Origin: Schmidtea nova
Taxonomy: Eukaryota
Direction of reading: 5' to 3'
NCBI GenBank assembly: GCA_044892505.1
Contig: CM097882.1
Location: 522,164,001 to 522,228,000, forward strand
Length of the DNA stretch: 64,000 nt
Notes under the pieces: generated by a model
Told to the model about the DNA's origin: nothing
The model's database searches: none
Seen by the model: the letters and a program-made list of their open reading frames with translations, nothing else
Part shown: piece after piece, positions 19,701-56,821 of the stretch
Numbering within the stretch: position 1 is the first letter of the stretch
How the letters are laid out: each line of letters starts with the position of its first letter
Program-made: the position numbers and the translations under genes

Positions 19701-20434
19701 CCATTACAAGACCAACACCTTGTACCAAACTTCTTAAAACAACGTTCAGCTACGTGGCCAATCTTATCGCAATGAGTACAACGTCTTACTTTGTTATATA
19801 CAACGTTGACACATTCAATGTCTTGAAATCTCGTATTCATCATTGTCCGTGTTATCTGAACAATTTCCTCCATCGGCATAGTATCAATCTTTGGAGTAGC
19901 CTGCAACAATCTCGACAATTCTTTAGGTAGTCCTACGACAAACGCGTTCCTAACGGAGTTCTCATTTACTCTTGCAAGCTTTGCATGAAATCTTAGATCG
20001 GCCAAAAATACATCCACATATCCTCCAGTCCATCTACAATTTCTCATTTTTTCGTATGATAAAAACATACTTGGAGAAAAAGCTTTTTCCAATGCATCCT
20101 CGATTGCTTCAAAACTAGCCTTGTCCTTTTCTGATAAATGTTCGTAGACGGCATATGCATCGCCTTTCAAAAGAGTAGACATAAAAACTTCTATAGTTTT
20201 TATCTTCAACATCTTTACAATTGATTTGAGTTGAGCAACCAGCTTGCAACATTGCCGGTTCCATCGAATTTTTCCAGATATTTCAAAAACTTCCATCGAT
20301 GACCGCGATAGCTTGTAGTAAAAATTATTAACGAGTTTTTGAATATTTATTTTTATAACATCAACTGCCTATTAAAACAATTGATATTAAATTAAACAAT
20401 AATTAAATTAAGCACGTAAATTAAATTAAGCACA
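16759..20434 (-). mobile_element. Compact LTR retrotransposon D (3.68 kb), 121-bp LTRs, TSD AAGAC
   Basis: Near-identical LTRs at 16759-16879 and 20314-20434 (TGTGCTT...ACTACA); 5-bp TSD AAGAC on both sides; PPT-like GGGGAGA next to the 3' LTR; gag with two knuckles, RT (LDLKNAYLQ, YIDN), RNase H, integrase with HHCC finger; several frameshifts. Confidence 0.93.
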
Positions 20435-28062: not shown

Positions 28063-28843
28063 TGTTGGGTATTTGCGATGTTTAGTCGGTGCTGTTAGTC
28101 TGACTCCTGGTGTTCTTTAAATTTGATTCAATAAAATAACCCAACACAGAAGAATTTATTTGTAACAATCACACTTTTTGACACACTAAGTCTCTTTAAA
28201 ATTTCACAATAACTTTTATCACTGCTTCTCCGACTTCGCGTAGGGATAAGTCTCCCCAAGGAAGATCTCCCTTTCTGGTACGCTGGAATAATAAATTTGG
28301 TTTGGAACTTTTCAAATATCGCTCTTAACTCCTCGCTTGCTAAATTCAAACTTTAGTATTTGTCGTTCCCTTTTATACTGCTTCTGATGATTGGTTTCCC
28401 ACTTCGCTGGAGCTGTCAAATGGTAGTACGATTTGACGTTTTAATTTTCCATCTGTCGGTTACTCTTCGGGTCTCCTCCAAAGTTATTTTTCTCAGGAAT
28501 TATTACCTGTCATATTGCTTGTCCGGGTTTCCCACACTCTCCGGGTTCTCCATTGTCTCGGGTTTCCCATTTGCTCGGGCTTTCCCTTAGCCAATTAATT
28601 ATTAATTAATAATTTAATATTTCAATTATTTCTTTCTGGGGACCCCCCATTGACTTTGTTTTATTATTTTTGGATTCGTTTCAATATTCGGCATCCACCC
28701 ATACCAATTTCCCCCGCTAATTCTCGGTTTTCGAATTTTACCTAAATTTTAATTAATTTTGAAAATTTTATACTTTATTGATTTTTACTAAGTTTTTATG
28801 ATTTTTATTTTTGTATTTTTCTAATTTTTACTAAACCTCAACA
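28063..28843 (-). mobile_element. LTR (781 bp, TG...CA) preceded by a polypurine tract, i.e. a 3' LTR of a minus-strand element
   Basis: Minus strand reads AGGGGAGAGG-TA-TGTTGAGG...ATACCCAACA; layout related to the 2.5 kb and 44.8 kb solo LTRs; flanks do not form a TSD. Confidence 0.75.
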
Positions 28844-28927
28844 TACCTCTCCCCTTTAATTTAGATTCGACCTCGAATCTATGTGTTTATATACATGTAT
28901 AAGTATTATTTGCCCATTTTTTTGCAA

Positions 28928-29114
28928 TGCTAATAATAACTCTAATAATAATAATAATAATAATAATATTAATAATAATAATAAAAATAATAATAATATT
29001 AATACTAATAATAATACCCTTAACAATATTAACAATAATACCAATAACAATACTAACAATACTATCACTAATAATACCAATAACATTACTAACATTAATA
29101 ATCCTAATAATAAT

Positions 29115-29194
<80 letters not shown>

Positions 29195-29245
29195 CACTAA
29201 CAATAATGATATTAGAGTATTACCGACGATAATGATAATGATAAC
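28928..29245. repeat. (AAT)n low-complexity tract
   Basis: Imperfect AAT/AAC repeat; source of poly-N, poly-I and poly-L ORFs. Confidence 0.95.
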
Positions 29246-31264
29246 TATCATCTTATATTTTATATATATAAGTATTTTCTATGTATTTATTCTGGAATGG
29301 AATCTTACAACTGTAACATTGTAAAATGTAACTATAAGTAAATAAAATTTAACCAAAAATGTTTTTAATAAACCTCAACCAATTGCAAAATTTTCATTAA
29401 TGCCAAAATACATCAAATGAAATATTTCATTACAAATTTCTAAAAATCTTATAAATTTATCTATATAATTATTACTGGGAATATCCGATATATATTACGG
29501 GACACGGTGAGTTGCCAATTATTTCATGTTGTTAATAATTTCTACATTCAGTCTATAATTAATAGAAGATTTATTTATTTCAGACATCAATTATTTCCTC
29601 ACTTAAATACTTTTTTACATATTATATATTTATGCATCTTATTGAATACGAACAATTTCGAGCAGGAAAAATTAAGAGAACAAAGAAATTGGTAGAATTT
29701 GATATATCAATGCGGCAGAAAACCATAAGAATAGGCAAAATTCGTCTGTGTCTAAAAATAATACAAGAAATCCTGTTATTTCGCATTTCTGTTTGTTAAA
29801 AAAATTCACTTAATTAAAACGACATAATAACGATAATAATAATTGATAAACCAATTTTTTTTTAAATTAACTATAATTAATGAATTTTTTTTTTTAAATG
29901 GAATCATTGTTACATTACGATAATGAATCGATTCTATGAGAATAGATTGAATCCTGTCAAAATACTATGAATGATGATTTATGATTAATAATGATTACTG
30001 TGATTAACTCTGATTAATAATTTACTGATGGAACTATTTTATCTCTAGGGATTAATTTCCTCCTCGGTGAAAAACACTCCCTCTCCGCCAGAATATTTCG
30101 AATCAGAAACTAGCAGAGACCATTTATCAAAACTGACAAATTTTTTTTAACGAGACTGACAAGGATATTTATGATAGTTACATTTCTGACTACTAAAACA
30201 AAACCTTTTCGGGATTAAGAACTGCTTTTTCTGTGAGGGTATGCCTATTGGAAAAGTGACGTTTGTTTCTCTCTCATTCGTCAGCCAGTTTGCCTATATT
30301 ACCAGGTTGACTATCATAATGTTCATCATATCATTTCATTATCTTGGTTTTCGAGCAAATCCACCTGTTATTTTTTTGGATCTATTCTTAAGTAAGATTT
30401 TAATAATTTCTTTCTTATTATTGCATTTCTTATTTTTTTTTTGATTTATAACTTTGAATTTTTTTTTTAAATTTATAAATTTGAATTTCTTAGTAATATG
30501 TTTATGTGATCATCTAATTCATTATTTTTCAGTGGCTACTGTGCTCCAATGTTTCAATGACAATGTTTCAAAATTCCTACAATTGTGTACACATTCGCTA
30601 AATACTGTCGCTACGCATCTGACTCGTAAAAGCATAAAACGAATTATTCTTAATTATTAAAAATAATAATAAATCGGTATGAAATATACGTTGTCAACAA
30701 TTCTTTTTGTTTTATTATTATTAAAAATAAATTTTTAATAGTTGAAATTACAGTCTACTTCTTTTTAATAGAAGGCATTTTTTTTTAAAAATGTATAGCT
30801 TATACATCGAGTTTACTCGGCGTATGTTTGATATATAAATCAAAGTTTAGGTAATCCTGAAATAAATTATGATTTTGAAACAAACGGTATTTAAGATGAC
30901 AAGTGGGTAAAGTAGTGATCTGCTTTCAAGATCACAGTGTTGATAAAAAGTTGAATGACAACTACATTTTTTTGCTTTGTATGTCAGTGTTTCAATTTAG
31001 CAATTGAGCATCAATATTCTCCTGTACTGTTTTCAATCATCTCATTTATAATTTGTTTCTTTTGGGAAATGAGAAGTAAAGAGGTATGATATATTGTATT
31101 CCCAATGATAAACACAGTGTGACAGGAACTGCAGAACGTAAATGTTTTACTTTATTTATTCAATTATATGTTTAATGTAAGTTCGATTTAATATTTATTT
31201 TACTTAACACTATGTGAAATTTGAAATTTAATAATAATTCGAATGATTGTGTGACGTCGTCAAC

Positions 31265-31311
<47 letters not shown>

Positions 31312-31356
31312 TAACAATAATATCATAATTATCTTTTTTCACCTTTGATCTTTTTT

Positions 31357-31540
31357 TATTATTATTATCAATAATTCTCATAATGACTATAGATCAAAAT
31401 TTTTTTTTATAAACAATAACACAATATTTCGGCACAGCCTTTATACACTTGATAAAGGCTGTGCCGAAATATTGTGTTATTGTTTATAAAAAAAAATTTT
31501 GATCTATAGTCATTATGAGAATTATTGATAATAATAATAA
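31357..31540. repeat. ~184-bp palindromic repeat embedded in (AAT)n
   Basis: Near-perfect inverted arms centred near 31445; same family as 13.4, 23.5, 24.3 and 50.3 kb. Confidence 0.9.
31445..31477 (+). ncRNA. Putative minimal type I hammerhead ribozyme (intact copy)
   Basis: ACAC-UUGAUAA-A-GGC(UGU)GCC-GAAA-UA-UU-GUGU. Confidence 0.65.
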
Positions 31541-31546
31541 CAATAA

Positions 31547-31577
<31 letters not shown>

Positions 31578-31978
31578 AATAAAAATAAAACTAACAACAA
31601 CAATATTAATTATTATTATTATTATTGCTTAGAACACTATAAAAGTATAGTGACATTATAAAATGATGATGCTACTGATATTAATTTCACTAATTATGAT
31701 GATAATGACACTGATTGCATTTACCTCTAACAACAGACCCTTCCCACTCGTCGTCCAGGGTAGCCAAACCCCGGCGATTGGGATTGTTTTGTTTGTTAGT
31801 TATTTATTTTATTTTTATCTCTATTTATAACAATTACTTATTTGCTTTATAAGTTGACTGAAAGTTAAAGCTACAGGGTCTAATTGGTGGGTTGCCATAA
31901 ATAAACGAATCCACAATATTTTACGATTATTTATTTTATAAATAAATCATATACAATTTAATAAATTTCAGTTAATCA

Positions 31979-33442
31979 TCAATCCATTTTTATCTCCATT
32001 CGATTTGATCCATGCTTGTACCGAACAATTGTTTCTTCTCGTTCATAGATAACACCGCTGTATAATATGGTTTTGCTAACTTCAATTGTCGAATCTGCTT
32101 TCCTTTTCAACTCGTTTACTTCTCTAGGCATTGGGCCATATTCTAACGTGGGTTGGAGTTTCACAATGTTCCAGTTTGGTATTGTTTCCAGACTCTCTTC
32201 AACTGGATTTATCAATGTTTCCACTGGATAACTTAGATCAATAATAGGAACTTCGCTCTCTTCCATTACTATGTCTTCACTTGTTAGATCTATTGCTTCC
32301 ATAGCCATGTTCTCCGGGATTTGTGCTAACTTTTGCCTATCGGTTCCTTGAGTTAATTTGGATGTGTTGGCATATAAATTTTTGTATTCCTTTAGAGAAT
32401 ACTTTCTTGATGGTTGTTTTCTGGGAATCACTATATCATCAATCCATTGATTCTCTACCCGTTGGTATATCTTCCGTATCGTTTTGACATCCTCCAGCGC
32501 AGAGTGTATCCCAACCTGCGTTTCTTCTCTGCATATTTCCCGTGCTACCGTCTGCAGCTTGAACCACTCTCCTCTTCTGGTTACGTTCATTCTTTGTAGT
32601 ATTTGTGCAGCTGCAAGATCCCGTATCCCATACAGTTGATCTACCCATAATCCCACATACTGTAGTTCGGCGTGTAAATCGTGGCCTATTAATATTTTTC
32701 CCACTGTTAGCCTCTGAATATCATTCATTTCCGAATATTGATCATGCTGATTTCTGCTGGCTACCTCTGTAATTCCATGGATCTTGGAATTGAAATGGCC
32801 AATTTTTCCTCTTGGGGTCAAATACACGTCTTTAATTATTTTTCCATGGTAATTTATCATCGCAACTGATAAAGGGATCATTCTTTTCGTTTCCGATGTG
32901 GCATATTCCGCGTCCACGAACATTATTCTGTTCCGAATTTCTTCCATATCCATTTCTTTCCTAATGAATGAGAGTTTCCTTTTTAACATTTCTGCTGATA
33001 TTTTCATCAACGTTGAATCCTGTTCCTCTGATGGCTGTGCGCTTGGCCTCTCATTTGGCTCGTTTTCTATTCTTGTTTCTATAACAATGATTGTTTCCTC
33101 ATTCGCTGCGCGTATAGGTTTCGCCATGATTTCCTTTTGGATCTTCCAGGACAAAAATTTCTTCAATTCCATCCACGGCTGATTCCCGTCCATTATTTCT
33201 ACTGTTCCTTTGATAACATGTAGGTAATATTGTTCTTTATTGGATATTCGAACTTTGTCCGTTAGCTTCATTCCCATCTTTCGGTGTATTCTGAGTATTT
33301 TAATTTTCATTTTTCGGTCGTCGATTCTGAAATAATTTGGGATTTGTAAGTTGTCTGTAATCTGGAATTTTTGCCCTGCATGGCGTCTTTGCAGCTTTGC
33401 ATAGCTGTCTAATGTGGATCTTGCCCATTGAATTTGTTCCAT
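31979..33442 (-). CDS. 487-aa protein with a DEDDh 3'-5' exonuclease domain (REX4/ISG20-like)
   Basis: ExoI FVDAEY, HGIT, ExoII LIGHDLHAEL, ExoIII HSALED; open and intronless. Confidence 0.85.
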   Translation of the reverse strand: MEQIQWARSTLDSYAKLQRRHAGQKFQITDNLQIPNYFRIDDRKMKIKILRIHRKMGMKLTDKVRISNKEQYYLHVIKGTVEIMDGNQPWMELKKFLSWKIQKEIMAKPIRAANEETIIVIETRIENEPNERPSAQPSEEQDSTLMKISAEMLKRKLSFIRKEMDMEEIRNRIMFVDAEYATSETKRMIPLSVAMINYHGKIIKDVYLTPRGKIGHFNSKIHGITEVASRNQHDQYSEMNDIQRLTVGKILIGHDLHAELQYVGLWVDQLYGIRDLAAAQILQRMNVTRRGEWFKLQTVAREICREETQVGIHSALEDVKTIRKIYQRVENQWIDDIVIPRKQPSRKYSLKEYKNLYANTSKLTQGTDRQKLAQIPENMAMEAIDLTSEDIVMEESEVPIIDLSYPVETLINPVEESLETIPNWNIVKLQPTLEYGPMPREVNELKRKADSTIEVSKTILYSGVIYEREETIVRYKHGSNRMEIKMD

Positions 33443-33849
33443 TCTTACTGAAATATTTATAATTAAAGGTTTATCAATATAAAATTTGAAGCTAGGGTTA
33501 AGATGAAGTGCCCAAAGGGTACTGTCTTACCTGTAGCTGTATATATATAAATATTAATAAAAAAATTACCAATTTAAAATTTTGAAATCGGATTTATTTA
33601 AAAAATTTTAAGTTTAAAGGATAAGCGCTTCTTTATATGCTCTTACAAATTTTCTATGACCTATTTCCTACTTTCCTACTCCCCCTTGTCTTTTAGTGTT
33701 AGCCAATCAAATTTATTCTTCCTTTCTTTCGTCGGAGAAGCAGTTTTACATAAACATTGATGATACTATCACTGAAAACACTGAATAAAATGTAAAAAAT
33801 AATACTACTACTACGTTATCAAAATTGCATGCAAATTAATCATGTCTTA

Positions 33850-36800
33850 CTACACAATTGTTTCTTCATAGATCATCCAAGGTCTCGAAGGCTCGGATTG
33901 AATCGTAGGTCTGTATATTTTTATCGATTCGCAAAAGACAATAGCGCCAAATGTGATGAGAAAGATTGTTAGGATAATGATGGTTATAAATAATATCACA
34001 CACGCGATTTCTTTGTCATTGTTTAATAATGGTATAGTTTTATTATTTACAATTGATTTATTGGTGATGTCATTGAAAGGCGTTGTCATCTGATTTTGGT
34101 ACAGTGTATTTGAATCGCTGTCATTTATCTTGTCGTAAAAGATTTGGACGAACTTGTCCTCGACTAAAGTTACTCGCCATAGATTAGAATACGAGGTGCG
34201 ACGCTGATATTTGATTTTCATAAAGACAAATTTTGACCTTGACTTTGATCGTAGTTGTTGAAATGTTAATATTTGAGATTTATTGCTGCTGTCTAAGATT
34301 GCCTGAACTTTTCCACAATAGTATATAATAGCTTTTTGATTTGGGTCTGCTCTCCAAGTAACATTTATTAGTTGATGGTATATATAAAACTGAACTCGGT
34401 TCGTTTCGTTGATCAATTTTATCGTTTGTTGACTAGACTGAATTTCAATCCATAGATTATCACTGACGGTTCCATTATCATATAAGGATTTTTCATAATA
34501 ACGAATCAAGATATTATATGTCTGAAATAATTTCAAATTATCATAGTTTATAAAGGGTTTTCTGCTGTTCAGCGTGTCTATAGCATAATTCTGGAAGACA
34601 GTTTTCACTTGTTGGGTTTCTTGTGGTTCCCAATGTACATTAATTCCATTCACAACGGGTTCAATCGAAACAAGATGCTCTAACCTTTTCGTCCAAACAT
34701 CGAGATGTACCATATTATATATTTTTGTAGTGTTCCCTTTAGAGCTTAATTGTGTTATTAGCCACTGATATTTATAATTCATCGTTAATTGCCGTGCCAC
34801 GTGAATGTTTTTATTATAATTCAATCTAACTGGGGGTTCAAAATAATCTAGTAAATTATTTACTTCAATTTCCTCTTCCCTTTCACCGTGAAAAAACCAT
34901 ACGATCTGGGTACATGTTGCATATATGTGAATTTTATCCATCAATGGGATTCTTTTTGTTGCATACGAGGGAAAAACTCGTATTTCACTTGTACAGAAGA
35001 CATTTGCCATCATTATTGTTGAAATCAACAAGACTTTGTTGATATAGTTTAGTGGAGCTGGGTTTTTTGTAAATTTTTGTTTTACTGCTCCTTCTACGTC
35101 TTTAATTAGTTTTGATCTCAATGGATATCGTCTTATTTCCTCCGACGGAACTTTCTTGGACCGGTTTACATGAACAATTATTGTTCCAGCTTTTTTATTA
35201 TTCTGTGGGCGTAATTTCAAATTAATTTCTGTAGTATCACATACGATATATGGTCCTTTAAACGGTCGCTGCAATTTTGGGGATAATCCCTTTGTTGGCT
35301 CTGGTTTATTCACATATACTAAGTCACCAATTTTAATATCATGTGCATGAGTGCGCTTGTCGTAGCACTCCTTATATGCTTCTTGCTGATGTTTTATTTT
35401 AAGTCCGGCTTGAATCCAAACTGTCTGGAGTCTTTCTTGCATAATCACTTTATAATCTGATACATCCATATATTGGGAAATAGGCGACTGAAATTTCAGA
35501 TCGATAGGCATATTGTTTCTTCGTAGGTACATGAGATAGAAAGGTGTTTCACCGGTACTTTCGTTCACTGCATTTCTGTATGCATACAAACATGGTTTAA
35601 TGAATAAATCCCAATCTTTTTGTTTTCTATTTACGTATGACGATATCATATTAATTAGTGTTTCATTGAATCTTTCCACTAATCCATATGTCTGTGGGTG
35701 ATATGGTGATGTACTGATTTTCATTATTCCAAATAATTCTGTAATTGATTTGAACAATTCGCTTTGAAAATTTGTTCCTTGGTCAGTAAGCACTTTCTTT
35801 GGTGCCCCATATCGAAATATTATGTTTTCCACAAATATCTTTGCAACTGTCTCAGCTTTCTGGTTTTGCATGGGGTAGGCTTCTGGCCATTTGGTTAAAT
35901 AATCACAGAAGACAATAATGTATTTATTGCCGTTTGTCGTTTCTGGTAATGGACCGACAATATCCATTGCCGTCATTTCCATTGGTGCCACCGGTACAGA
36001 CATTGGTTTTAAAGGAACTCTAATTTTTCGTCCTGTGTTTCGTCTAGTTAAGCATATTTCGCAAATGTGACACCATTGTCTGACATCTTGTTCTATAGTG
36101 TCCCAATAGTATTTTTGTTTTAATCTTGACAATGTTTTTCGAGCTGATAAATGCCCTCCTAATGCTCCGTCATGATACAACAATAATAATGATTTTCTAT
36201 GTTTTGTTGGAACTATAATTAATAAATTTTCATTTTTTACGCATTTTAGCAAACCATCATGTATAATGTATTTATGTCTTTCCTCGACAATATGCTTCCA
36301 GTCGCTTTCTTTTCTAATTGTGACAGCATGTTGACGTAGCTGATTCAATTCATCATCCTTTTCTTGATCACTTTGCAATTCCTTCATATTATTTGCAGTT
36401 TTAATTGCCATAAATATAGTGTTTTCATACTTTGTTTCATATTGAACAACGTCCTCCTCCTCTGAAATTCTCGACAGCGCGTCTGCATTTGCGTTCGACT
36501 TTCCTGTACGATATTTGATCTCAAAATCATATTTCTGCAAAGCAATTGACCATCTTATCAGCTTACTTGCCGAGTCTCTGTGCTTCATTAGCCATTGTAA
36601 TGGGTTATGATCAGTGAAAACAACAAATTTCATACCGAGTAAGTATTGCCTGAATGTAGTTATTCCATATACTAATGCTAACGTTTCTTTTTCAATCGTA
36701 GAATAATTCTTTTCATGCGGTCTTAACGTTCGACTGGCATAAGCGATAACGTGATCTTTCTCACCTTCTACTTGTTGACCTAGTATCGCCCCTACTGCAA

Positions 36801-37587
36801 ACTTACTAGCATCTGTCATCAATAAGAATGGCCTTTTAAAATCAGGGCATCTTAATATAGGTTGTTTCATTAGGCTTTCTTTGAGTGCATCGAATGCTTC
36901 TTGTTGAACCGATGCCCATTTAAATTTTGCTTGCTTTTTCAACAGCACATTTAAAGGTTGTGCGACATGCGAAAAATTTCTTATAAATTTTCTGTAATAA
37001 CTAGCTAGTCCTAGAAATTGTCGGACTTGGTCTATATCTTTGGGAATCGGATATTTCTTAATCTTTTGTACATTTTCCGGATTCGGCTGCAATCCTCGCC
37101 GGGAAATAATATGACCTATGTAAACAACTTCAGATTTTCCCCATTCACATTTTGACGGTTTTATCTTTAGGTTTGCCTTTAACAATCGTTTAAATACTGT
37201 TCCCACATCCCTCAGATGTTCCTGAAAATTGTTTGAAAATATTATTATATCATCAATATACACTAGTGCATGTGGGATGTCCCGTAATACGAAATTCATA
37301 CCTCTTTGAAAGGTAGCCGGTGCTCCCGTTAAACCAAACGGTAAGACATTAAACTCGTACAGACCTTTACCGTCTGAATACGCAGTTTTTCTCCTGTCCT
37401 CTTCTTTGACCTTAAACTGATTATACCCTTTGTTAAGATCAATAACAGTAAAGAATTGCACCTCCCCCATTTGATCGAACATTTCTTGGGGAACTGGAAT
37501 AGGGTATGTATCTTTTCTTGTGACTTGATTTAACTTTCGATAATCTACACAGAATCGTAGATCACCATCTTTCTTTTTCACTACCAC
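33850..37587 (-). CDS. Pol (RT-RNase H-integrase) fused in frame to a signal peptide, an Ig/FN3-like ectodomain and a TM helix
   Basis: RT YIDDII; RH LMTDAS...EKE..FTDH; IN HHCC (YHDGALGGH...CEIC), MDIVGP, LTDQG, LVERFN; GPY motif; then hydrophobic KVLLISTIMMANVFC, ~320-aa N-glycosylation-rich region and TM IACVILFITIIILTIFLITFGAIVFC. Confidence 0.9.
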   Translation of the reverse strand: MVVKKKDGDLRFCVDYRKLNQVTRKDTYPIPVPQEMFDQMGEVQFFTVIDLNKGYNQFKVKEEDRRKTAYSDGKGLYEFNVLPFGLTGAPATFQRGMNFVLRDIPHALVYIDDIIIFSNNFQEHLRDVGTVFKRLLKANLKIKPSKCEWGKSEVVYIGHIISRRGLQPNPENVQKIKKYPIPKDIDQVRQFLGLASYYRKFIRNFSHVAQPLNVLLKKQAKFKWASVQQEAFDALKESLMKQPILRCPDFKRPFLLMTDASKFAVGAILGQQVEGEKDHVIAYASRTLRPHEKNYSTIEKETLALVYGITTFRQYLLGMKFVVFTDHNPLQWLMKHRDSASKLIRWSIALQKYDFEIKYRTGKSNANADALSRISEEEDVVQYETKYENTIFMAIKTANNMKELQSDQEKDDELNQLRQHAVTIRKESDWKHIVEERHKYIIHDGLLKCVKNENLLIIVPTKHRKSLLLLYHDGALGGHLSARKTLSRLKQKYYWDTIEQDVRQWCHICEICLTRRNTGRKIRVPLKPMSVPVAPMEMTAMDIVGPLPETTNGNKYIIVFCDYLTKWPEAYPMQNQKAETVAKIFVENIIFRYGAPKKVLTDQGTNFQSELFKSITELFGIMKISTSPYHPQTYGLVERFNETLINMISSYVNRKQKDWDLFIKPCLYAYRNAVNESTGETPFYLMYLRRNNMPIDLKFQSPISQYMDVSDYKVIMQERLQTVWIQAGLKIKHQQEAYKECYDKRTHAHDIKIGDLVYVNKPEPTKGLSPKLQRPFKGPYIVCDTTEINLKLRPQNNKKAGTIIVHVNRSKKVPSEEIRRYPLRSKLIKDVEGAVKQKFTKNPAPLNYINKVLLISTIMMANVFCTSEIRVFPSYATKRIPLMDKIHIYATCTQIVWFFHGEREEEIEVNNLLDYFEPPVRLNYNKNIHVARQLTMNYKYQWLITQLSSKGNTTKIYNMVHLDVWTKRLEHLVSIEPVVNGINVHWEPQETQQVKTVFQNYAIDTLNSRKPFINYDNLKLFQTYNILIRYYEKSLYDNGTVSDNLWIEIQSSQQTIKLINETNRVQFYIYHQLINVTWRADPNQKAIIYYCGKVQAILDSSNKSQILTFQQLRSKSRSKFVFMKIKYQRRTSYSNLWRVTLVEDKFVQIFYDKINDSDSNTLYQNQMTTPFNDITNKSIVNNKTIPLLNNDKEIACVILFITIIILTIFLITFGAIVFCESIKIYRPTIQSEPSRPWMIYEETIV

Positions 37588-37617: not shown

Positions 37618-38482
37618 TCATATTATTTTGAATTCTTTCATTGCTTTGATTTGCCTATCACTTTCTTCTTGATGAATGTATGGAATCCTATATGGCCTCA
37701 ATTTTATAGGGGTTTCGTCCAGCAATGGTATCTCATGTTCAATCACTTGAGTGAGTCCCAAATCATATTCATGTTTCGCGAACACATTCCTGTATCTCTT
37801 TAGTAGTGCTGTAAATTCTTGTTTTTGCTCATCTGTCAAATCATTACTTGTAATTTGAGGTCCTTTGTAAATCTTTATATTTCTGGGCAACCTTTGTACT
37901 TCTTCTTGTTTTATTTTTGTCAGTTTCCCGAGCTTTGTTTTGGGTTTCATCTGAACAGATTTTGTGCTACAATTTGCTAATCTTACTGGTACGGTTTTGT
38001 CTTTAACTTTTACTACTTCATCGCACATTGCTCCGTCGTACTTCTCTATTAATTTTTGATTTGGTTCAAATATACATTCATCTTCGGAGACATTCATTAC
38101 ATTGGCATAGTATATAACTTCGCTTTTTGGTGGTATTTCCAAAGTTTGATTTAAAAAAACTTGTCCCGCTTCGTGTACAACTTCACCAGTTAGTCCTTTT
38201 ATCAATTTTCCCGTTCTTAAATCAAGAGAAATTCCTTGTAATTGTTCCATAACGTCCATTCCAATCAAGCATTTGACAGGGCTTTTTCTCATTACAGATA
38301 CCCAATGAGTTACTTCTTGATTTCCAATATTCAGCTTAACTTCCAATTTTCCAACGATATTCAATACATTATGCGTCATTGATAATAATTTTCGTAGTTG
38401 GCTTTATTCTTGCCTTCTCCTGACTCGTCAAGAGATTCTCAGATACTATGCTGTGACTTGAGCCTGAATCCAATAACGCTTA
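37618..38482 (-). pseudogene. Aspartic protease and RT N-terminus of the large element
   Basis: ALLDSGSS at 38462-38470 directly after an in-frame TAA (38480-38482); 1-nt frameshift near 38400; in-frame TGA at 37618-37620 before SSSPFSASIVVVKKKDG. Confidence 0.9.
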
Positions 38483-38950
38483 AACTTTTCGTCTATTAAA
38501 TTGTATGACAATTCGAGGTTGTTTTCCTCCCAATTCTATGGTCAATAATGCATAACTACATGGTAAACCAAGCATATTCTTTCTTTCAATTTCGGCGCTT
38601 GATGGTTCAATCTTTTCTAATTCGACTTTAATCTCATCAACTGGTTTCATTTCTCTCAACTTCTCACTTGGATATACAGGAGCTGTTGGCATAAATGTCG
38701 GTGTGTACCACTTAGAGAGAGTGTCAATTCCAGTTAGTTTTGGTATTGGTTCCAGCAAGAATCTGGATTCGGGGTCTATTCTACTTTTTATTATACCCCG
38801 TCGAAACGATTTTGGCTCTGATCTGCCGCCATTGCTATCATTGTTGTGACCATTATTTTTATCCTCAAATTCGCATAGTGATTCTTCACTTTTCGGATCA
38901 TTTTTCAATTGTGCTCTAACACTTGCCATTTCCTTATATTGATGATTTGT

Positions 38951-40804
38951 AATGAAGAATCTAGCCAAAAACGGAATACAACCAATAATCATTTTCCATG
39001 ACCATCCGTAAATTGCATATATTCGATGAGCGGACAATATTTGTGATATTATTACTTTTATTGTTACTGCAACTACATAAATGCCAATTAAGCCTGCACA
39101 AGCTTGTCCTAAAAACATAAATCTTCCCCAAATTTTTTTCATTGTTTTAAATGTAGCTCGTTTAAAATGATCAGGTGTCAGCAAATATTCGTAATTAGCT
39201 TTTCCTTCTCTATTTGGCAGTATTGGATCAATCATCTCAGAAATCACTCGTTCCTTTTTTGATGGGAATAATAAATTTCTTTGGGCTTCTTCTATATCTT
39301 CGCTTGCGTATAGACCCATTTGTGCCATCTTATTCATTGATGTGAAATTTACCAAGTACTCTAAATTTATTAATTCCAATTTATCTGGAGTTCTAACTCC
39401 CCGGTATTCTGGTAACGCTATCTATGAATCTTGTGCTAAACGATATAGTGGAGCTAATAGTCGATTACATTGTAGAATTTTCGGTTTGACTTGTTCTTCC
39501 AACAATATTCGAGTTATCGGTTCCATGAATCGTAATTTCCCGCCAACACTTACCAATAATTCATTTGTACATTTCTCATATTTCGCGATTTTCACTATAG
39601 TTTCTTTGCATCTGTAACTGTATAATGCTTCTCCAAAGATCCTAGCGAATACACCATTTTATGATATTAGCATGGGTGCTACTAAATTTGGATTAGTAAT
39701 TGCCATTGCCATTCGATTTCTAAGTATTTCCTTGTTCAACTTACAGTCGTTTAGAATCATTTCTCTATATACGTTTTCCATGATGTTTTGACTAAAATGA
39801 AACAAATAGTCAATTTTATTATTGAAGTAATGAGTTAATTTGATATCATCCCGGTGAATTCTTGTTTTAGCCTCATATACGATTGTTTTAGATACATAAA
39901 CTCCTTTGTAATTTGTTGCATATACAGTTTGACCACATTTACTCGTTATGTCTTTTTTTATGAACCGCATGCTGTCTGTTGGCAATGTTGACATTAACAC
40001 TGTTGCCGTTTGTCTCGTCCAAACTTGGGTTGATCTAACTGTATTGTTCGGTTTATAATTCACATTAAAATTGTCCGGTCTTTCCCTAAATTGCTCTCCG
40101 CTCAATTCTTTGAAATTAATAGTTTTTAAATGGGATAAGTTGCATATATTAGTCTTGACATCATAGACAAGAATCGATTCTCCAGTGTGACAACTAGTTT
40201 GTTTCATATTACAGAATGGATGAGTTTGTAACTTTCCTGTATCGTCATCAAACGACCCTTCGAATACTCTCAATTCTGTTAGATATTCCTCTATTACTAC
40301 TGCTTGTTTTATCACTTGATCATTTATTTTATACGGTTCTCCCTCACAATCGCCGTCTGATTTCATTACTCCTTTCACAATTAATGTTTCTCTGATTTGA
40401 TGGTTTACTCGAGCTTTCAATCGAATTTCAGGACTAATTTTTAATTCCCCTGTTTGAAATGCCGTTAAACAGTTTTCTGGTAACACGTCCACCGGTCGTG
40501 GAATAGCATGCATTTTTATCATCGAAGTATGGCTCCATTTGCCACAAAAGAATACGAACGTGGTTCGTTTAACGATACATTCCCTAACTTGAGAACGCCG
40601 TAAATCGGATTCTTGGTAAACATGATATTTTGCTTCATTTTCAATTTTTAATTTTCTTGGGTATGCATCTGGGCATTCTGTCATATCGACCACAGAATAA
40701 ATTTTCCCCATTTCTGTTTGTGAGCAATCGTATGCCACCAATGAAGTAGCTTGTGCAATTATTGTGCATAAAATAACCATCATGAACATCACCCAAGGGA
40801 ATAT
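38951..40804 (-). pseudogene. Chuvirus-type envelope/fusion glycoprotein with signal peptide and C-terminal TM region; two in-frame stops
   Basis: Signal IFPWVMFMMVILCTIIAQATS then LVAYDC; Cys-rich ectodomain; GEALYSYRC...C.NEL.V...F.EP.TRIL...C; TM region WGRFMFLGQACAGLIGIY...YGWSW; stops at 39659-39661 and 39422-39424. Confidence 0.75.
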
Positions 40805-40891
40805 CGTAGTTTTTCTTAGTTTTGGGTCTATTTTTTCGTTCAACTTTCTTTGAGGTGGATTCTCATCTTCTTGTTTCTTTCTTTTCTTTGT

Positions 40892-41265
40892 TAAAGATGA
40901 ATTTAATGCATTCCAACCTCCAAGCTCTTTTATCCCTTTCATCAAACATTCATTTAATAGTCGAGCCGCAGTGTCAATCAAATTCTCAATCTGATCTGGC
41001 CTAGTAAATGCACGAATACCAATTTCGGAAACCATATGTGTTAAACTTGTTAACACTGTTTTTCTATCGATTCCATTTTCGATCAATTTTTCAATCCTTT
41101 CTCTTTTACAGAAATCACCCTTTTTCCAAATTCATGCTCAATTTTTGGAAGTCTCTCTTTCACTTCCTCAACCATCCCTTTCAATTCCTCCTCAGCTTCT
41201 GGTTCTATTTTTAGAATTGGGTAAACAGTTTTAACTAGGTTTCTTATTATTTCTTTAGTTTCATC
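40892..41265 (-). pseudogene. Bcl-2-like helical domain (split by a frameshift near 41095)
   Basis: BH4-like EIIRNLVKTVYPIL; BH3-like ELKGMVEEVKERL; BH1-like KLIENGIDRKTVLTSLTH; BH2-like LNECLMKGIKELGGWNAL. Confidence 0.6.
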
Positions 41266-41589
41266 AACTTCCCGCTCTATATTTACCAAATATTTCTTCA
41301 TCTCATATAAAGTTCTAGGTTTAGTACTCCAATTATTCATTTCCACTTTCTCGACATTTGTCTCTCTGCTAATTGTAGTTTCTGCTACCTGAATATTGAT
41401 TTCCTTCTGATCATCACCTTCATCGTTAGCTATTGCGGTTTCATTTTCTCCTATTTCATCTCTCTTTTCTTCTGTGTCGGAGGATTCCCCATTACCAAGC
41501 ATTCTCGGGTTAAATTCTTTATTTGCTATTATACGATTAATTAAATATCCCTGACTTCCATCAGTACTTAAATATCCATATTCATCTAA

Positions 41590-42276
41590 TTCTTGTGGTA
41601 TGCATCCACAGTCATATAAATATTCATCGTCATCCAGTGCTTCACCTTTATGTTTCAACACTATAATTCCATCTTGTCCTAACATCTTCGTAGCTCTTCT
41701 ACGTATTTTCCGCACTTTCGTACACCAATGCTCTTCTACATACTCAGTTTTTCCAATATCTTCGTATTCTATTGCAATTACTAATAAATTCATTTCTGCT
41801 CTATCTTCTCTAAGCTCCTTGCCCAATTTTCTCAGTAATCTCTTTAAATTTCTACTATATTTGGTTCTTTTAAACAGATGCGGTCGTATTACGTTGATAA
41901 TTTCTATTTTATCTTTTTGCTCAAATTCAGATTTCTCAATTAATTTCACTATTTCATTTATTTCGCTTTCATCGCCAATATATAAAACATCAGATAGCTC
42001 CTTTAACACTTCCCTCGGATCACTTTTCACCATTTCACAACTACTCCTCATATTGACTATTTGTAACTCATTTTTATCTCCTGTTATAAAACCACAGTCT
42101 ACCAAATATTCCTCGTTATCTAATTCTCTATTTTTAAATTTTAATTCTACTACCCATCCTTCGCATTTTTCTCTTAGTCTCCTTTTTAAATCTTTCACAC
42201 AATCATAGGCTTCACATCGACAAGTAATCACACTTTTATCACAGTCATTAACAACATCAATAAAAATAAAATCTAA
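41590..42276 (-). CDS. Two ubiquitin-like modules within the polyprotein (part of ORF 41083-42939)
   Basis: CVKDLKRRL...VELKFKNRELDNEEYLVDCGF and TKVRKIRRR...VLKHKGEALDDDEYLYDCGC; pattern resembles ubiquitin 'vK.ki...rLif.Gk.LeD..tL.dy.I'. Confidence 0.6.
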
Positions 42277-42779
42277 CCATCCATTTTCTCGGAATGCTTT
42301 TCCAAATGTTTTCATCAACTCTTTGATTTCATCTCTATCTGCTAAATTTATTTGATAATAGTTTGCACACAAATTAATCACGCATTTTAGTTTCCTCATA
42401 CTCAGCGACATTTGACTCAACTTTTTAATTGACATTAATATTTTGGATGATTCTCTTGCGCTAGCTTCTAGCAATTTCTCAAGTCTCTTCATCATTATTG
42501 TAACTTTTTCGCTTTCCAAATCGTCCTTTGTACAAACTCCTTTCGCTTCCGTTTCAGTCATATCCGACCCATACATCATATGATTATCTAATTCCTCATC
42601 AGATTCAAACTTAGACATTAAAAGATCCAAGCGTCGACCCATTTCTTTCACTTGATTTTCAATTCTATCATTAAATTCGTCTGATTGAACAAAAGCAACA
42701 TTTTCTGCTGGCATTCTATCATTTTGAAAACGAATTGATTTTTTTAATATTGGTTTCTGAAATTTATCGACATTTCTCG

Positions 42780-43972
42780 GGCATGATCTAGCTATATGTC
42801 CATAGCCTCGACATGAATGACATTGGATTTGGCCTTGAAGGTTCACTCTATGGCGAAGTGGATGGAGATCTCGATCTGGCAAAACAATTACGTGAAACAT
42901 GTCCTTTCCTTCCACAGTTGTAGCATTGTATATTATCATTAGTTCGTTGATCTTTAATACTAAATTTATTTAAGCTTTTTTCACTATTACCCTTCATCCA
43001 ATCTGGCCACATTCGTTTTGGGCTTCGTTGTACATTATTTTTAGACCAGCATTGATTGCTATTGTGACCAATCTTTTGACAGTGATCACATTGAATTGGA
43101 GTTGGGCTTTTTTGCGATCGGTTCTTGAACCAACATTGATCGGCATGATGTCCCATCCGTTGACAATAACTGCATTGAATTGGTTGTTCTTTTTCGTCAA
43201 TTTGAACACGTGTTGATTTATTCATCTCAAATTTTGGTCTAAATTTTGGTGATGGACAACTTGATTGCTGGAGCAGATTGTTTCTGACTGGAGAATTGGA
43301 TCTTTCTCTTGATTCATTGATAATGGCGAAGGATTCTGATTTCGGCTTTGCACTTTTTAAATTTAATTCAATTTTCATAGCCTTTTTGATTAACTCATCG
43401 AAGTTATTGAAATCTACATAACATAAGGCTTTTTTGATTTCCCCTTTTACTCCCGCTAAGAACTGATCTTGTAATAGTTCCTTTATCTGCTTTGCCACTT
43501 CAATCTGTTCCGGTTTTACTTCGAAGGCCTTTTCTGCAAGCGTGGTCAAATGGTATGCAAATTCACTTACGGATTCGTCTGATTTTTGTACTCTATTATA
43601 GAATTTCTGCCTCATTATCCGTTTTATGTCTCCTCCGACTAACTTCGCGGCTAAGGCATCTTTCAGTTTTGTCCAGTCATTGGCAATTGTCCTTTTGTCA
43701 ATTTGTTGCCAGGCTTCTCTTGCTGCTCCCTTTAAATACAGTGGTAGTCTTTGCACCATTATTGATTGGCTCCATCCATAGGCTGTGGCATACATATAGT
43801 AATCTGCCATAAAGTCGACAAATTCCACTGGATCACCCCCATATTGGTTAACTGGTAATTTTTGGCAGCTAGCATAATCATTGCCATTTCCGGTATTGCT
43901 TGTGGACATGGGTGTATCATCATGACCGTTTGGGTTGTTCATTTCGTCTTCTGGTTTCCTGTTGCTTCTCAA
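42780..43972 (-). CDS. Gag of the large element with four CCHC zinc knuckles (fourth after a frameshift near 42860)
   Basis: Retrotransposon gag-type capsid region (YGGDP.EF...F..RVQK.DESV.EF...L..LA); CSYCQRMGHHADQC, CDHCQKIGHNSNQC, CYNCGRKGHVSRNC, CHSCRGYGHIARSC. Confidence 0.9.
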
Positions 43973-44689: not shown

Positions 44690-45902
44690 ATGTCTTTTAA
44701 AAGATTTGATATACTGGCACCGGGAATTATACCATTTCGAATATGGATGTCAAGCGGAATAGATCTCAATGCTGTTTTAATGGATTATTTAAAGACGATT
44801 GATCAGGAACTATTGGTAGTAATATATCATGAACCTTGTGTATGTTGGGGTCATGCTTAGATAAGTATAAGATAAAATAAAAAGCACAAAACCTATGTAC
44901 AAATCAATAAAAAAACACAAAATCAAAAAAAGGATAATTAATGTTCATAGATTAATTAAAAATTTGAAAAAAATAAAAATAAAGATTTGACGAGGGAAAT
45001 TGGTATGTACGGTGGGAAATGTAGAGGAGAGTACGGATATGATAATAAAATATCAATGGGGGTGCCAGAAAAAGATATTCAGAATATAGAAATTAATTAA
45101 AGATTTATGAATAATTTATTAGCCATATAGAAAACCCGAGTCAAGAGGAAGCCCGAGTGCATGGGAGATCCGGCCTAGTGGAGAGCCCGAGCAACGGGAA
45201 ACCCCAGAAGAAATCGAATTAACAAAAACGCGGATCAAATAAATCATATCAGAGCAAATTATAATTAGCATAATTCCAATTACGGAAAGTCATAATCAAA
45301 TTTGACCGCAAGTTTGGAAAACATAACCAATTTGTTGTCAAATTGGTCAACTATAAAAGCGGCAAGAAAACAGAAAATTACCAGTTTGGCCGAAGAGAAT
45401 TTCCATTAGTTTTTAAGATTGGGTAAGTGGAAAAGGGGATTATCGTACAGTAACCTTTGCCAATCAAGCGTATCAGAAAGGGCAATCTACTCTTGCTAGA
45501 CCTAGCCGTATCGCTTAGAAAATAGTGCAGAAAGAGAGTGTATAAACAATAAAGATTGTACTGATTTTAGCTGTTGTGAATTGTCAAATTTGAATAAATA
45601 AAATTTATTGTGTTGGGTCTCAGTTATATCGTTATTAAAGGAGCACGAGGAGTCAGAAACTAGACCTACTCAAATTAATAACCCAACATGTATATCGATG
45701 TGAAAGTTGCGTTGATCAGTTGAAGAACGATCATGTATGGATTCTAAAAAATGAGTTGAGAAAATATCATTTTTCAACCATTGTAGATAAATTTTCAAAC
45801 ATTGTAGATAAATTTTCAAACATTGTATATAAATGTTCAAACATTGTTGATAACTGTTCAAGCATTGTTGATAACTGTGCAACCATTGATGAAAACTGTT
45901 GA
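44690..45902 (+). pseudogene. ~120-aa ORF split by the solo LTR
   Basis: ATG at 44690; 51 codons to the TSD; after removing the LTR and one TGTA the frame continues (CVYRCESCVDQLKNDHVW...) to TGA at 45900-45902. Confidence 0.5.
44843..45688 (+). mobile_element. Solo LTR (846 bp, TG...CA) with 4-bp TSD TGTA
   Basis: TGTTGGGG...ACCCAACA flanked by TGTA on both sides; same family as 2532-3361. Confidence 0.9.
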
Positions 45903-47194: not shown

Positions 47195-48773
47195 CCACAT
47201 TGATTTACCCTGACAAGTAAGTTTTGACTACCTGGTACTCTAATAAACACTGACCATGTTCTTTACTAAAATCGTCATAAAATACTAAACAAGTGTGTTT
47301 TCACTAAACGTGTATGTTTTCACTAAATTATAAGTCTTAAAATCATCCATATTAACACAAAAAATACATGAAATAGTATTTGCGACTCACCCACTAAAAA
47401 ATCACAATAAAACTACGATTTATACATTGTGTTGACTCACCCGGTTCCGGTTGAATAATCGGATCAAATTAATACAAATAAGTTTTTTACATGAGAACCT
47501 TGTTCTATATGGGAATTTTGTGCTACATAAGTTCATAGTTATACATAAAAATCTTGTTTGATAAAAACACTTGTGTATGTGCGCGGGAAGGATTTACATG
47601 TTTTACTCATTTAGATTTGATCACTATATGCTTCAAAAGTTCAACGAAAATCCATATATATCATTTGTTAACTAAACATAAAATATTACAGTAAATTAAA
47701 ATGTAAATTATAAAAATTTTAAAGAAAATTTTAAAATTTAATCTAATTTATAAAGTTTAACCTAATTTATAAAGATTAAATAAATTTATAAAGATTTATT
47801 TACAATGAAAAATGCATTCAAACTTTAAAAGGTAAATTATTTTACGCGATTAAGAGATCTATAATAAATGATTTTATTTTTAAAACAGCGTTTTTGGGTA
47901 AATATTTGGACAATTTTCAAAGGGAGTTGTCGAGAAAATGAATAAATAACGTCGGAAATTTTTTTAAATGAATTTTAATATAAAATTTCATATATTTCCA
48001 AAAAATATTTTGCCGTTTTCAAAACCTAAAAAGATAATACCGTCTAATTATTTGCAATTTATGGACAATTAAATATATTTACATTGCAATTTAGATCATT
48101 TTGAAGTTTCAAATAATACAGGACAATAAGATTTGGTAATGCTTGAAATAAAAAATAAAACTTGAAATTTCAATGTTGAAAATAAAATATTATAATGGAA
48201 TTCCGAAATCTACCAAATCAGAATAATCAAAGCCAGGCAAAATTGCGAAAACTACTTCCGATTTTGAAGATTTCGTGGACTATCCAAAAAGATATATTTC
48301 GGAAAGTTTTTATTTAATAATAATTATTATAATAAATCTTAGTTAAAGGGATTTTTTAACTTTATTTTTTTGTAAATAATTCCCAAAACATGTTTAAAAA
48401 ATCATCATTTCATAAAATGTATTTAAAAATTAAATAAAAATCAAATTATAGAACATAGATAATCTTTCAAAGTTTCTATAGTGATCTCATGTCATTATGA
48501 GATCAAAAGAAAAGCTTTAAAAGATATCTTGATAAATAAACTTACCTGATAACCATTTTTAAAAAATGGCTAAACAATATTAAAAAAGCATAATTATGAG
48601 TCACACGCGGGTTTACACATGTGCGTGCAATATAGTTATTGTAGTTACAGTTGAAAATAGATTAATTAACTAATTTAAATAAAATGCTTTATAATAAATA
48701 GTTTAGTGATAATTTAGTGAAATTATTAACAGATTGATGAGAAATTTTAAAAATACAATAAAATTAACGAAAC

Positions 48774-48986
48774 CTCTGCCCATCGACAGTGCACAGCGAC
48801 ACTCCCCAATAGTGAGGGCTAAACCGTGACAATTGGGGAATATATGTCGCAACTGATCCGTTCTGATTGTGTACACAATGATTGTATATCTCTTTGATAT
48901 GTTCTGTGAAACCTTTGAAGTTTGGAATTGCTAAATCGCCGGTAAGAATTTTATTAATAACACTAAAATCTTTGTTATCCAATAAT
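48774..48986 (-). CDS. GLS: Glutaminase exon (LLDNKDFSVINKILTGDLAIPNF...VATYIPQL...WGVSLCTVDGQR)
   Basis: AG/GT bounded, 213 nt, phase-consistent; VA.YIPQL and WGVS.CTVDGQR signatures. Confidence 0.97.
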
Positions 48987-49598
48987 CTAAAATTAAAAAT
49001 TGTTATAAACAGATCAAATTATTTTAGGTTTTTCGCTGAATTATTGAATAAAGTTTTTAAATCTGATATTTGTTGTGATTTCTAACGGCAGATGCTTTCA
49101 TTTGACTCTGTCATCAGTACTATGAAAGAAACTTAGACCAAGACCCAGAATCGAACCAGTTGACTTTTTGACCAGAACAAAGCAGAATTTGACCAATCAG
49201 CCATAAGGCTATATCAAATATTATCATTAACATCTCTTATTTTTATCATTGATATTTTCGTTTCTATTTTAGAAAGTTTCAATATTTTTTATGAAGACTA
49301 TAGATCAATATTTTTTATAAAGGATTTTAATGTGATTTTTTCATCACCTTTTAAAAAAATATTGATCTATAGTTTTATAAAAATAATATATTGAATATCA
49401 CAACTTCTGTACCACTCTGAATAAATGTATAAAAATACATTTGATATCTTACAAATCAGGGTGCGTATAAGCAAGTCGTATCATCCCCGTATCACACTAA
49501 ATAGGTACAATTACAGTTAAAGTTTTAATTGGCATAAAATAGTGCTGAGTAATTAAATAGAATAAAATCATTTTTGGTCGGAATTTTTTTTATATTAA

Positions 49599-53715: not shown

Positions 53716-55121
53716 GTCAAATCCAAAAATATACAATACCTGATATAACACCTAGATATTAGAATCATCTCACTGAGATCAAAAAAAGGTCAGATCTACA
53801 CGGAGTATCCCACCTCATCGAAGACAAAGACTTTATTCCAAAAACAGAATGGATAACTAACAATGAGGGAATTAAAACTCATCCCCATCAAATCACAGAA
53901 TACAAGAAATCCGATAAAGAAAACAAAATCATGTTCACCAGACAAAATGTTGAAAAATTTACCAAACAACAAATCACAAAAGAATTATTTCATACCATCA
54001 GAAGATTCTTCTTGACCACAATCAAATACAACTTCAAATGCCCAAAAGATCGAAATACTACCTACGAAATAATGGATGCGTTTATACATCAATCAGAACA
54101 TCAACATGATTAAAATAAAAGAAAAGGCTTGCACACCAAGATTGGGTCATTAACCTCAAAGGAAGTCCAAAAAATCCAAGAATCTATTGAAGACACATTA
54201 CATCTGGAATCCCTCCAGAAAATAATTAACCAATACCCATTCGAAAACCAAGAAGAGCTAACAAGAATTGCTAATTTTTTCCAATTTTACACACACAGAA
54301 ACATCATCGGGATCACAAGAAGCTTCAAATTTCAAAAAACAATAACGCTACTCTCAGAAAGAAATCATACGGAACTATCAATAGAAGATCCAATTATCAA
54401 TCAAAACCTTGAACCAGCAAATTTCCATGAACAAATGGAAATCCAAGAACTTCCTAATAGAGAAATCTCTGAAACCCCACATAATGCTATCCGAATAGAC
54501 TCTGACGATGATTCAAACTTCAAAATAATCACAAATGCAACTATCAAAAACCATACTCTGGGTATCTCAGAAACCTCCAAAGAAACTGAAGAAAAAACTA
54601 CCTTCAAAAAAACTTCAAATGAATCACAAGTTGATAATATTACCCAACCACAGATCAGCAAAGAGATTAGAAAGAAATTAAACTCTATAATTGCCAAAAA
54701 AGAAGAAAACCTAAAACTTTTCAGATTGATCGACCAAATCTATAGAGAAAGTATTAATAAAGCCAAAATAAAAGCAAATTATGAAAATCTAAATTCATTC
54801 AACAGAGCACAAGAAACATGGAATCAATTAATAGATGAAGATAACATATTAGTAGAACAGTTCCAAACCATCTATGATGAAGCAGATTACAATGACAATC
54901 AGAGCATTAATATCCTGAACAATATCCATAATAGATATTTTTCAGCAGAAGAAAAAATCAACCAAATAGTTGATGACTTAGACAAAATAGTAAATGACTT
55001 TTTGCAGCAAATACAAAACCCAGTGACTAAGATTAGCGCACCCATCGAAAACTTAATGCCAAATGAACAAATGAAGACATCAAAAAGAACAAAGAAATCA
55101 AAGACAAACAAAGCGTTCTAA
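53716..55121 (+). pseudogene. A/C-skewed unknown ORF, possibly ORF1 of a non-LTR retroelement
   Basis: ORFs 53931-54113 and 54129-55121 are in one frame separated by a single TAA; strong A/C strand skew; no recognisable motif. Confidence 0.35.
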
Positions 55122-56760: not shown

Positions 56761-56821
56761 ATTTAATTTTAATCGATGGTCTATAATATTGAATATTTAT
56801 TTTTTTTTTAAAAATCACTCT

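Follow-up and report, generated by a model that had tools for sequence, protein, structure and literature searches.

The minus strand of a 64,000-nt stretch of the Schmidtea nova genome (hereafter, the window) carries a glycoprotein-like sequence between a gag and an aspartic protease, raising the question of what this glycoprotein is, how it came to lie there and whether the surrounding element makes use of it. The initial annotation had read it as a chuvirus-type glycoprotein gene, captured independently by a Gypsy lineage at an unusual internal position. The reading that we consider probable is that it forms the envelope domain within a copy, dead and 5'-truncated, of a young Ty3/gypsy element, whose intact siblings encode capsid, a chuvirus/gB-type glycoprotein (G) and enzymes in a single frame of ~3,400 codons and likely travel from cell to cell in an enveloped particle.

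The element runs on the minus strand from ~44063 down to 28063, with the following features in the order in which they are read:

42751..43942 (lower bound approximate), minus strand: Gag, with capsid domain and CCHC zinc knuckles (Pfam Retrotrans_gag, E = 1e-8; zf-CCHC, E = 1e-7)
41216..42750 (bounds approximate), minus strand: spacer of ~500 aa without a family match
40885..41215 (bounds approximate), minus strand: Bcl-2-like helical domain, with a frameshift across the domain in the window copy
40742..40804, minus strand: internal signal-like hydrophobic segment (hydropathy 2.2), which is also the tail of the Bcl-2-like domain
39131..40741, minus strand: predicted class III (chuvirus/gB-type) fusion glycoprotein ectodomain, interrupted by two private stops (39659-61 and 39422-24)
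38951..39130, minus strand: membrane anchor of G (39121-39047) and the amphipathic YGWSW stretch after it (a single TM peak in hydropathy; within the PF24664 match)
38483..38950, minus strand: putative cytoplasmic linker of ~155 aa between G and protease
38100..38479 (lower bound approximate), minus strand: aspartic protease (LLDSGSS, from sequence), frameshifted in the window copy
36529..37581, minus strand: reverse transcriptase and RNase H (Pfam RVT_1, E = 6e-31; RT_RNaseH, E = 2e-38)
35695..36213, minus strand: integrase zinc finger and core (Pfam Integrase_H2C2, E = 9e-18; rve, E = 1e-11)
33850..35037, minus strand: post-integrase polyprotein extension (by hydropathy, signal-like segment 35037-34987 and TM 33993-33937; eight N-glycosylation sequons in the ectodomain)
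31979..33526, minus strand: separate 515-codon ORF with a DEDDh-type exonuclease core (~32914-32492), ISG20/ISG20L2-like (profile against PDB; Pfam RNase_T, E = 4e-4, below cut-off)
28846..28857, minus strand: polypurine tract adjoining the 3' LTR (from sequence)
28063..28843, minus strand: 3' LTR, TG...CA, 781 bp (94% against sibling LTRs)

The order of gag followed by protease (PR), then reverse transcriptase (RT), RNase H (RH) and integrase (IN), together with the exclusively gypsy-type Pfam families recovered in a scan of eight window frames, places the element in Ty3/gypsy (Metaviridae). In the test for an Anakin-like element, BEL/Pao-type gag and pol domains, under what we take to be their family names, were found on none of these frames. 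The broken pieces of the window protease gave no Pfam match; a Pfam protease is present at the same place in relatives. The landmarks first noted for the glycoprotein are all in place: a hydrophobic segment (40804-40742) precedes LVAYDC (from 40741), GEALYSYRC, CTNELLV and FMEPITRIL lie in one frame, the TM region extends from WGRF at 39130 with its YGWSW ending at 38996, and ALLDSGSS starts in frame at 38479, ~470 nt after the TM region (initially put at ~480 nt) and with one TAA (38480-82) between. The Cys-rich ectodomain, estimated at ~550 aa, spans ~540 aa but is not open in the window copy, where two further in-frame stops interrupt it.

The window copy contains four in-frame stops (the two in the ectodomain, the TAA before the protease and one at 37618-20) and three frameshifts (~42850-42970, 41085-41130 and 38370-38405). 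The stops are common to 0/29, 0/28, 0/28 and 0/26 aligned copies of its own family (family A, below), and the frame changes to 1/25, 2/27 and 0/27. Programmed readthrough of the TAA before the protease was therefore rejected, since none of the 28 aligned siblings has this stop, which represents private damage, and programmed frameshifting was rejected on the corresponding sibling counts. Likeness to the siblings stops at 44063, the 5' LTR and primer site are missing, and the 3' LTR and polypurine tract are the only LTR-element ends retained; this copy is dead and 5'-truncated. The 3-kb 3' non-coding region also holds a palindromic, MITE-like insertion (window 31262-31626), with arms of 92 nt that are 99% complementary, and an AAT-rich array (28856-29324).

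The architecture of the intact element was established from sibling copies. A DNA search of the window's genome returned 1,248 candidates, of which 40 were scored and all 40 were matches; among these 40, family A comprises 30 copies at 94-100% (the window copy included) and family B 10 copies at 85%. All 39 other copies examined hold G in the same position, in the order gag-spacer-G-PR-RT, wherever landmarks exist, a few rearranged copies lacking the flanking landmarks. The frame is uninterrupted from gag to RT in 10 of these 39, with breaks scattered in the remaining 29. Searching at protein level with the element's 3' end recovered 106 matches, of which 20 lie in frames of 3,390-3,402 codons, and revealed a third family (C), and a distant query uncovered a fourth (D), with frames of up to 3,427-3,442 codons. 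The intact sibling frame thus reads Gag, spacer, Bcl-2-like domain, G, PR, RT, RH, IN and a second membrane protein over 3,390-3,442 codons, followed by the separate exonuclease ORF, in an element of ~17 kb. The position of G between gag and protease was correctly noted at the outset, but because intact siblings carry a single frame, G is a domain of one Gag-to-integrase polyprotein and not a separate gene. Nematode NERV elements reportedly have a continuous gag-env-pro-pol frame.

Both ends were retrieved for 10 copies. The LTR pairs are 99-100% alike in eight of them, 98.5% alike in one and badly bounded (90%) in the last, and the near identity of these pairs indicates that the family is young. 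A 4-bp target duplication is readable in 8/10 copies and a primer site in 9/10, so that the siblings present the TG...CA LTRs, target duplication, primer site and polypurine tract of Ty3/gypsy elements. The primer site is complementary to the 3' end of the genome's own tRNA-Trp. The tRNA-Trp genes that supply the primer of these elements form a tandem array (G000:C3 from 128,022,754; L171-L174) with a spacing of ~282 bp; the tRNA-Trp pattern has 1,984 exact genome matches, all on one strand, and 10 genes were called in 3 kb.

Several lines of evidence bear on the identity of G. The three open pieces of the window copy match the Monjiviricetes_fusion family (PF24664) at profile positions 5-363, 367-438 and 446-636 of 653, with E-values of 5e-36, 9e-11 and 4e-25, all over the cut-off; as these pieces cover successive parts of the profile, the match is not due to chance. 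Whole copies match at E = 1e-86, and no PF24664 match over the cut-off was obtained in 14 control genomes. Hydropathy and the PF24664 match together outline a signal-ectodomain-TM layout. A single-sequence PDB search with G gave no match, and a profile built on 88 relatives matched herpes gB (E = 1.2e-4). On a structure model of a natural 762-aa stretch (pLDDT 79.8), Foldseek retrieved post-fusion herpes gB (E = 3.8e-14), and VIA aligned the model to post-fusion gB with Z 9.8 over 421 residues (rmsd 8.8). Among viral models, in a library without retroelement proteins, the chuvirus glycoprotein of Tacheng Tick Virus 4 ranked first (E = 2e-37), followed by chu-like viruses and then a xinmovirus (5.5e-31). 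Fourteen ectodomain positions, 11 of them Cys, are nearly invariant across viral and retroelement relatives. Word-indexed homologue searches returned three matches for G and one for the alignment. The resemblance to viral fusion proteins anticipated in the initial annotation was thus recovered at both profile and structural level, and since chuvirus glycoproteins rank first among viral models and gB is matched as well, the label of chuvirus-type is fair. On sequence and modeled structure, G is a class III fusion glycoprotein of the Monjiviricetes type with a gB-like fold, and a predicted fusogen.

Three further parts of the element accompany this glycoprotein. The post-integrase frame consists of a signal-like segment, a ~325-aa ectodomain with 6-8 N-glycosylation sequons, a TM helix and a short tail, which in the window copy ends in YEETIV. 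The last residues are ETIV, ETIL or ETFV in 49/50 loci, some of which represent the same copy twice, the remaining locus lacking the region; ETFV is found in 9/9 family C and D loci. The domain is 50-62% identical between families, yet its C-terminal end is kept, in a form that we take to be a class I PDZ-binding pattern. Among distant elements carried by metagenome contigs, L175 ends in GTMV and L176 in ATFV, the end of L178 does not fit the pattern, and among four long database proteins running past integrase one ends in ATAV. The post-integrase protein showed no sequence match to the corresponding regions of distant polyproteins, so their kinship is one of position and layout only. A word-indexed homologue search with this protein returned nothing; its ectodomain had no Pfam or PDB sequence match and, with a model of pLDDT 37.9, no Foldseek match at E < 0.001. 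Atlas gave an FN3 score of 0.87 with 147 shared features for this ectodomain, which we treat as a lead only.

The domain directly preceding the signal of G likely belongs to the Bcl-2 family, a sequence- and model-based assignment on which four weak lines agree, none of them decisive singly. Pfam Bcl-2 matched 5/6 members below the cut-off (best E = 0.0011), 59 of the 60 matches listed for its profile against PDB are Bcl-2 family proteins (best E = 0.007), Atlas gave a Bcl-2 score of 0.85 with 186/256 features, and VIA gave Z 8.4 to viral Bcl-2, a value also within the range of unrelated helical bundles. A BH2-like motif (window 40900-40935) has its first Trp in families B, C and D, a position taken by Gly in family A. 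The separate ORF, in turn, appears to encode a DEDDh, ISG20-like exonuclease, with activity predicted from sequence: a profile of the four families matched ISG20L2 (E = 2.5e-9) and ISG20 (E = 9e-8) in PDB, and the catalytic motifs are kept in 4/4 families, with Glu at the second site. An exonuclease ORF also follows the polyprotein in L175 and L176, and was not seen in L178.

Hydropathy along the polyprotein follows the order signal, anchor, signal, anchor, from which it follows that Gag, the Bcl-2-like domain, PR, RT-RH and IN would be cytoplasmic and both ectodomains lumenal. We infer topology, cleavage, particles and infectivity along these lines, with signal cleavage sites read by eye from hydropathy. 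Threading of the polyprotein across the ER membrane would be co-translational, with the hydrophobic segment that follows the Bcl-2-like domain acting as an internal signal peptide that directs G into the lumen. Signal peptidase, presumably cutting just before LVAYDC, would free G and leave Gag tethered on the cytoplasmic side; the anchor of G would then bring the chain back into the cytoplasm for release of PR, RT-RH and IN by the protease of the element. A further type I membrane protein, bearing a PDZ-type tail, would result from the second signal and anchor after integrase and would likewise be freed by signal peptidase. Budding particles might carry G and enter a further cell by fusion, a stem or germ cell being a plausible target, and the Bcl-2-like domain and ISG20-like exonuclease could act as accessory, anti-defence cargo. 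Barring splicing or premature termination, a single frame would yield Gag, G and Pol in equal numbers.

Whether the element requires G can be assessed through selection. In a comparison of a family A copy with a family B copy, a single pair with dS near saturation (0.5-2.8), the G ectodomain shows a dN/dS of 0.03, with 92% amino-acid identity at dS 1.2, near the values for RT (0.017) and gag (0.074), which argues that G is required by the element. Estimates likewise resting on single pairs near saturation are 0.16-0.20 for the post-integrase extension, 0.19 for the spacer, 0.21 for the linker after G and 0.35 for the Bcl-2-like region, the fastest-changing part. G is moreover kept in frame in four families, at 81-92% identity, and the pattern is consistent with a working env. 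The notion that G is a passenger or a host-domesticated fragment, of no use to the element, could appeal to the broken window copy and to the 29/39 siblings broken somewhere between gag and RT, but these breaks are private and, barring an alignment artefact, the selection data refute it, leaving it hardly credible. It is also conceivable, but in our judgment unlikely, that the same anatomy operates without free infectious particles, G working inside or between touching cells by anchoring capsids to membranes or by fusing a somatic cell or vesicle with its neighbor. Selection on G speaks for its use and not for its route, a 1:1:1 ratio of Gag, G and Pol follows from the single frame, and the entry mechanism of gB-type elements is called unknown in the eLife survey describing them (PMC13524379), all of which such a role would accommodate. 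However, a whole class III ectodomain with its 14 nearly invariant positions and a post-fusion gB-like model is more than an anchor needs, and we favor the enveloped, cell-to-cell particle.

The origin of G was addressed through its relatives. A search returned 366 matches, the best-scoring of which are long proteins; among 14 that were scanned for domains, 11 have protease, RT or gag-type domains next to G, one a weak Bcl-2 match and two G only. The nearest relatives are retroelement polyproteins, at 37-42% identity, and G is 23-25% identical to the glycoproteins encoded by two contigs from negative-strand RNA viruses, both carrying an L polymerase. In a 49-row tree (27 of 63 non-polyprotein rows kept), all 20 polyprotein G's, the window's and 19 others, fall on one side of a branch with SH-aLRT 94 and both viral G's lie outside; an 81-row tree, from which seven of 88 rows were dropped for low coverage or length, gives SH-aLRT 95 to the same group plus three truncated fragments. 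Both are quick, midpoint-rooted searches with few named viruses, and their support is just under or at 95. The RT-RH region is 45-56% identical to that of env-carrying polyproteins, against 35-38% to two env-less window elements, and in a 13-row tree without named references RT relationships broadly follow those of G. The gypsy-type host element proposed in the initial annotation stands, but an independent capture is not supported: G groups with the G's of other retroelements, lies in the frame of an LTR element and sits apart from viral G's, as neither a Chuviridae/Jingchuvirales virus nor a fragment endogenized directly from one would. The idea that this gypsy lineage recently and independently acquired its glycoprotein gene from a chuvirus could draw on chuvirus G's being the best structural matches among viruses and on the identity to the two viral contigs, yet the grouping without viral G's, the broadly concordant RT and the same env position in the planarian element Burro have already largely refuted it, and we hold it to be very improbable. 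Since the trees are quick, midpoint-rooted and contain few named rows, they argue against a recent private capture and leave the original one undated; G appears from sequence comparison to be inherited within an old GAG-ENV-POL lineage and not freshly captured from a chuvirus.

The distant elements share this layout. L175 and L176 have the same polyprotein layout with RT identity of 55-56%, and the contigs carrying it span L175:2-12104, L176:97-13470 and L178:440-8518; L176 has an extra 222-aa ORF without a Pfam match. In P0006, P0009, P0154 and L175, two to four aspartic-protease domains follow G, and P0154 (4,844 aa) also has ankyrin repeats. A full env-carrying retroelement polyprotein (P0008) is deposited as a protein of a Flavobacteriaceae MAG and is probably animal DNA in a bacterial bin.

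The internal position of env, initially thought unusual, has precedents. An in-frame env between BCL2 and PR was reported in 2019, as the first such case, for planarian Burro (PMC6431247), and GAG-ENV-POL elements with a gB-type env, which are not monophyletic, were described by Chary and Hayashi (eLife, 2026; PMC13524379) in Platyhelminthes, Nematoda and Bryozoa, with nine flatworm elements listed, six of them from S. mediterranea. The present elements conform to the GAG-ENV-POL HSV/gB errantivirus group in ORF order, gB-type env and multiple copies >98% alike. By sequence, the window element is closely akin to Smed_errantivirus_1 and represents a compact relative of Burro, and its layout is already published. 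It shares with Smed_errantivirus_1 the ORF order, the gB-type env and many near-identical copies (45 in S. mediterranea, a different genome; PMC13524379); ENV domains I-II are identical at 196/251 residues (78%, a hand count), the comparison covering ENV. The main text of PMC13524379 contains neither 'polyprotein' nor 'exonuclease', and its Schmidtea rows give no tRNA type or LTR; the present analysis maps LTRs and a primer site for tRNA-Trp, together with the Bcl-2-like domain, the second membrane protein and the exonuclease ORF. At 14.8 kb including flanks, Smed_errantivirus_1 as published is shorter than expected with the extension, which is thus either unannotated or absent there. Like Burro/GYPSM1 (PMC6431247), the present element has its env in frame, with a BCL2-like domain before it and the protease after it in one polyprotein, env matching mononegavirus fusion proteins; unlike Burro, which exceeds 30 kb and encodes 4,873 aa, it measures ~17 kb and 3,400 codons, and none of the Burro-type BIR, ankyrin, MATH and dUTPase families was found in the window element. 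The Burro section of PMC6431247 mentions no post-integrase membrane protein or exonuclease.

Other systems are similar in part. Nematode NERV (Sacco et al. 2022, cited in PMC13524379) also has ENV before POL in a metavirus, in a different host phylum. Anakin of mosquitoes (PMC7642597) combines a chuvirus-like glycoprotein of the same Pfam family with an LTR element, but is BEL/Pao and not gypsy, a different capture context; arthropod chuvirus-derived glycoproteins are covered in PMC10084718. Chuvirus and xinmovirus G's share family (PF24664) and fold, yet are encoded by genes of their own, with an N-terminal signal, in RNA viruses that possess an L polymerase, at 17-25% identity. ORF3 of rotifer Juno and Vesta (PMC5408684) is, like the ORF described here, a DnaQ-like exonuclease encoded separately after pol, with DEED for DEDD, but is RNase D-like and DEDDy, whereas ours is DEDDh, ISG20-like and in an env-carrying element. 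Troyka elements (PMC12440569) were rejected, as their CG ends and 3-bp duplications do not fit.

In its core layout, the element extends a published group by one genome. The two cargo proteins that look undescribed are the second membrane protein with its PDZ-type end and the exonuclease, for which no description was found in the literature searched; Repbase, Grohme 2018 or further supplements may hold one. Both are kept in the four families analyzed here and in two distant metagenome elements. Strong selection on G and very young insertions make these elements good candidates for a cell-to-cell retroelement in an animal built on adult stem cells, and the conserved second membrane protein is a concrete candidate for the entry partner of gB-type elements lacking herpes-like partner proteins, a point left open by the eLife survey (PMC13524379). 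More tentatively, and as a possibility to which we give limited weight, the elements could be full enveloped invertebrate retroviruses that derive a two-protein entry machine from one polyprotein, pairing the gB-type fusogen with the second glycoprotein as attachment or trigger partner (cf. gD or gH/gL for herpes gB), with the PDZ tail steering the latter to a membrane domain and a Bcl-2 mimic and ISG20-like exonuclease blunting cell death and RNA defences.

The window also holds other features. Just upstream of the truncated element lies a solo LTR of a related family (44843-45688, plus strand; TG...CA, TGTA on both sides), 88% alike to a second copy at ~2532-3361 (plus strand) and 65-73% to stretches within the family A-D LTRs. 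A 42-kb element between the repeats at 2.5-3.4 kb and 44.8-45.7 kb was considered and rejected, the latter being an other-strand solo LTR with its own target duplication. Three further decayed, env-less LTR elements occupy 5986-9924 (plus), 58827-62456 (minus) and 16871-20368 (minus), the first two being 70-78% alike and forming inverted repeats. A 468-aa ORF at 55390-56796 (minus), which to us has the look of a FLYWCH/MULE-type transposase, faces a 335-aa ORF at 54114-55121 (plus), and we take 48764-49018 (minus) to be an exon resembling glutaminase and 3834-4352 (minus) to be a decayed, nuclear-receptor-like zinc finger fragment.
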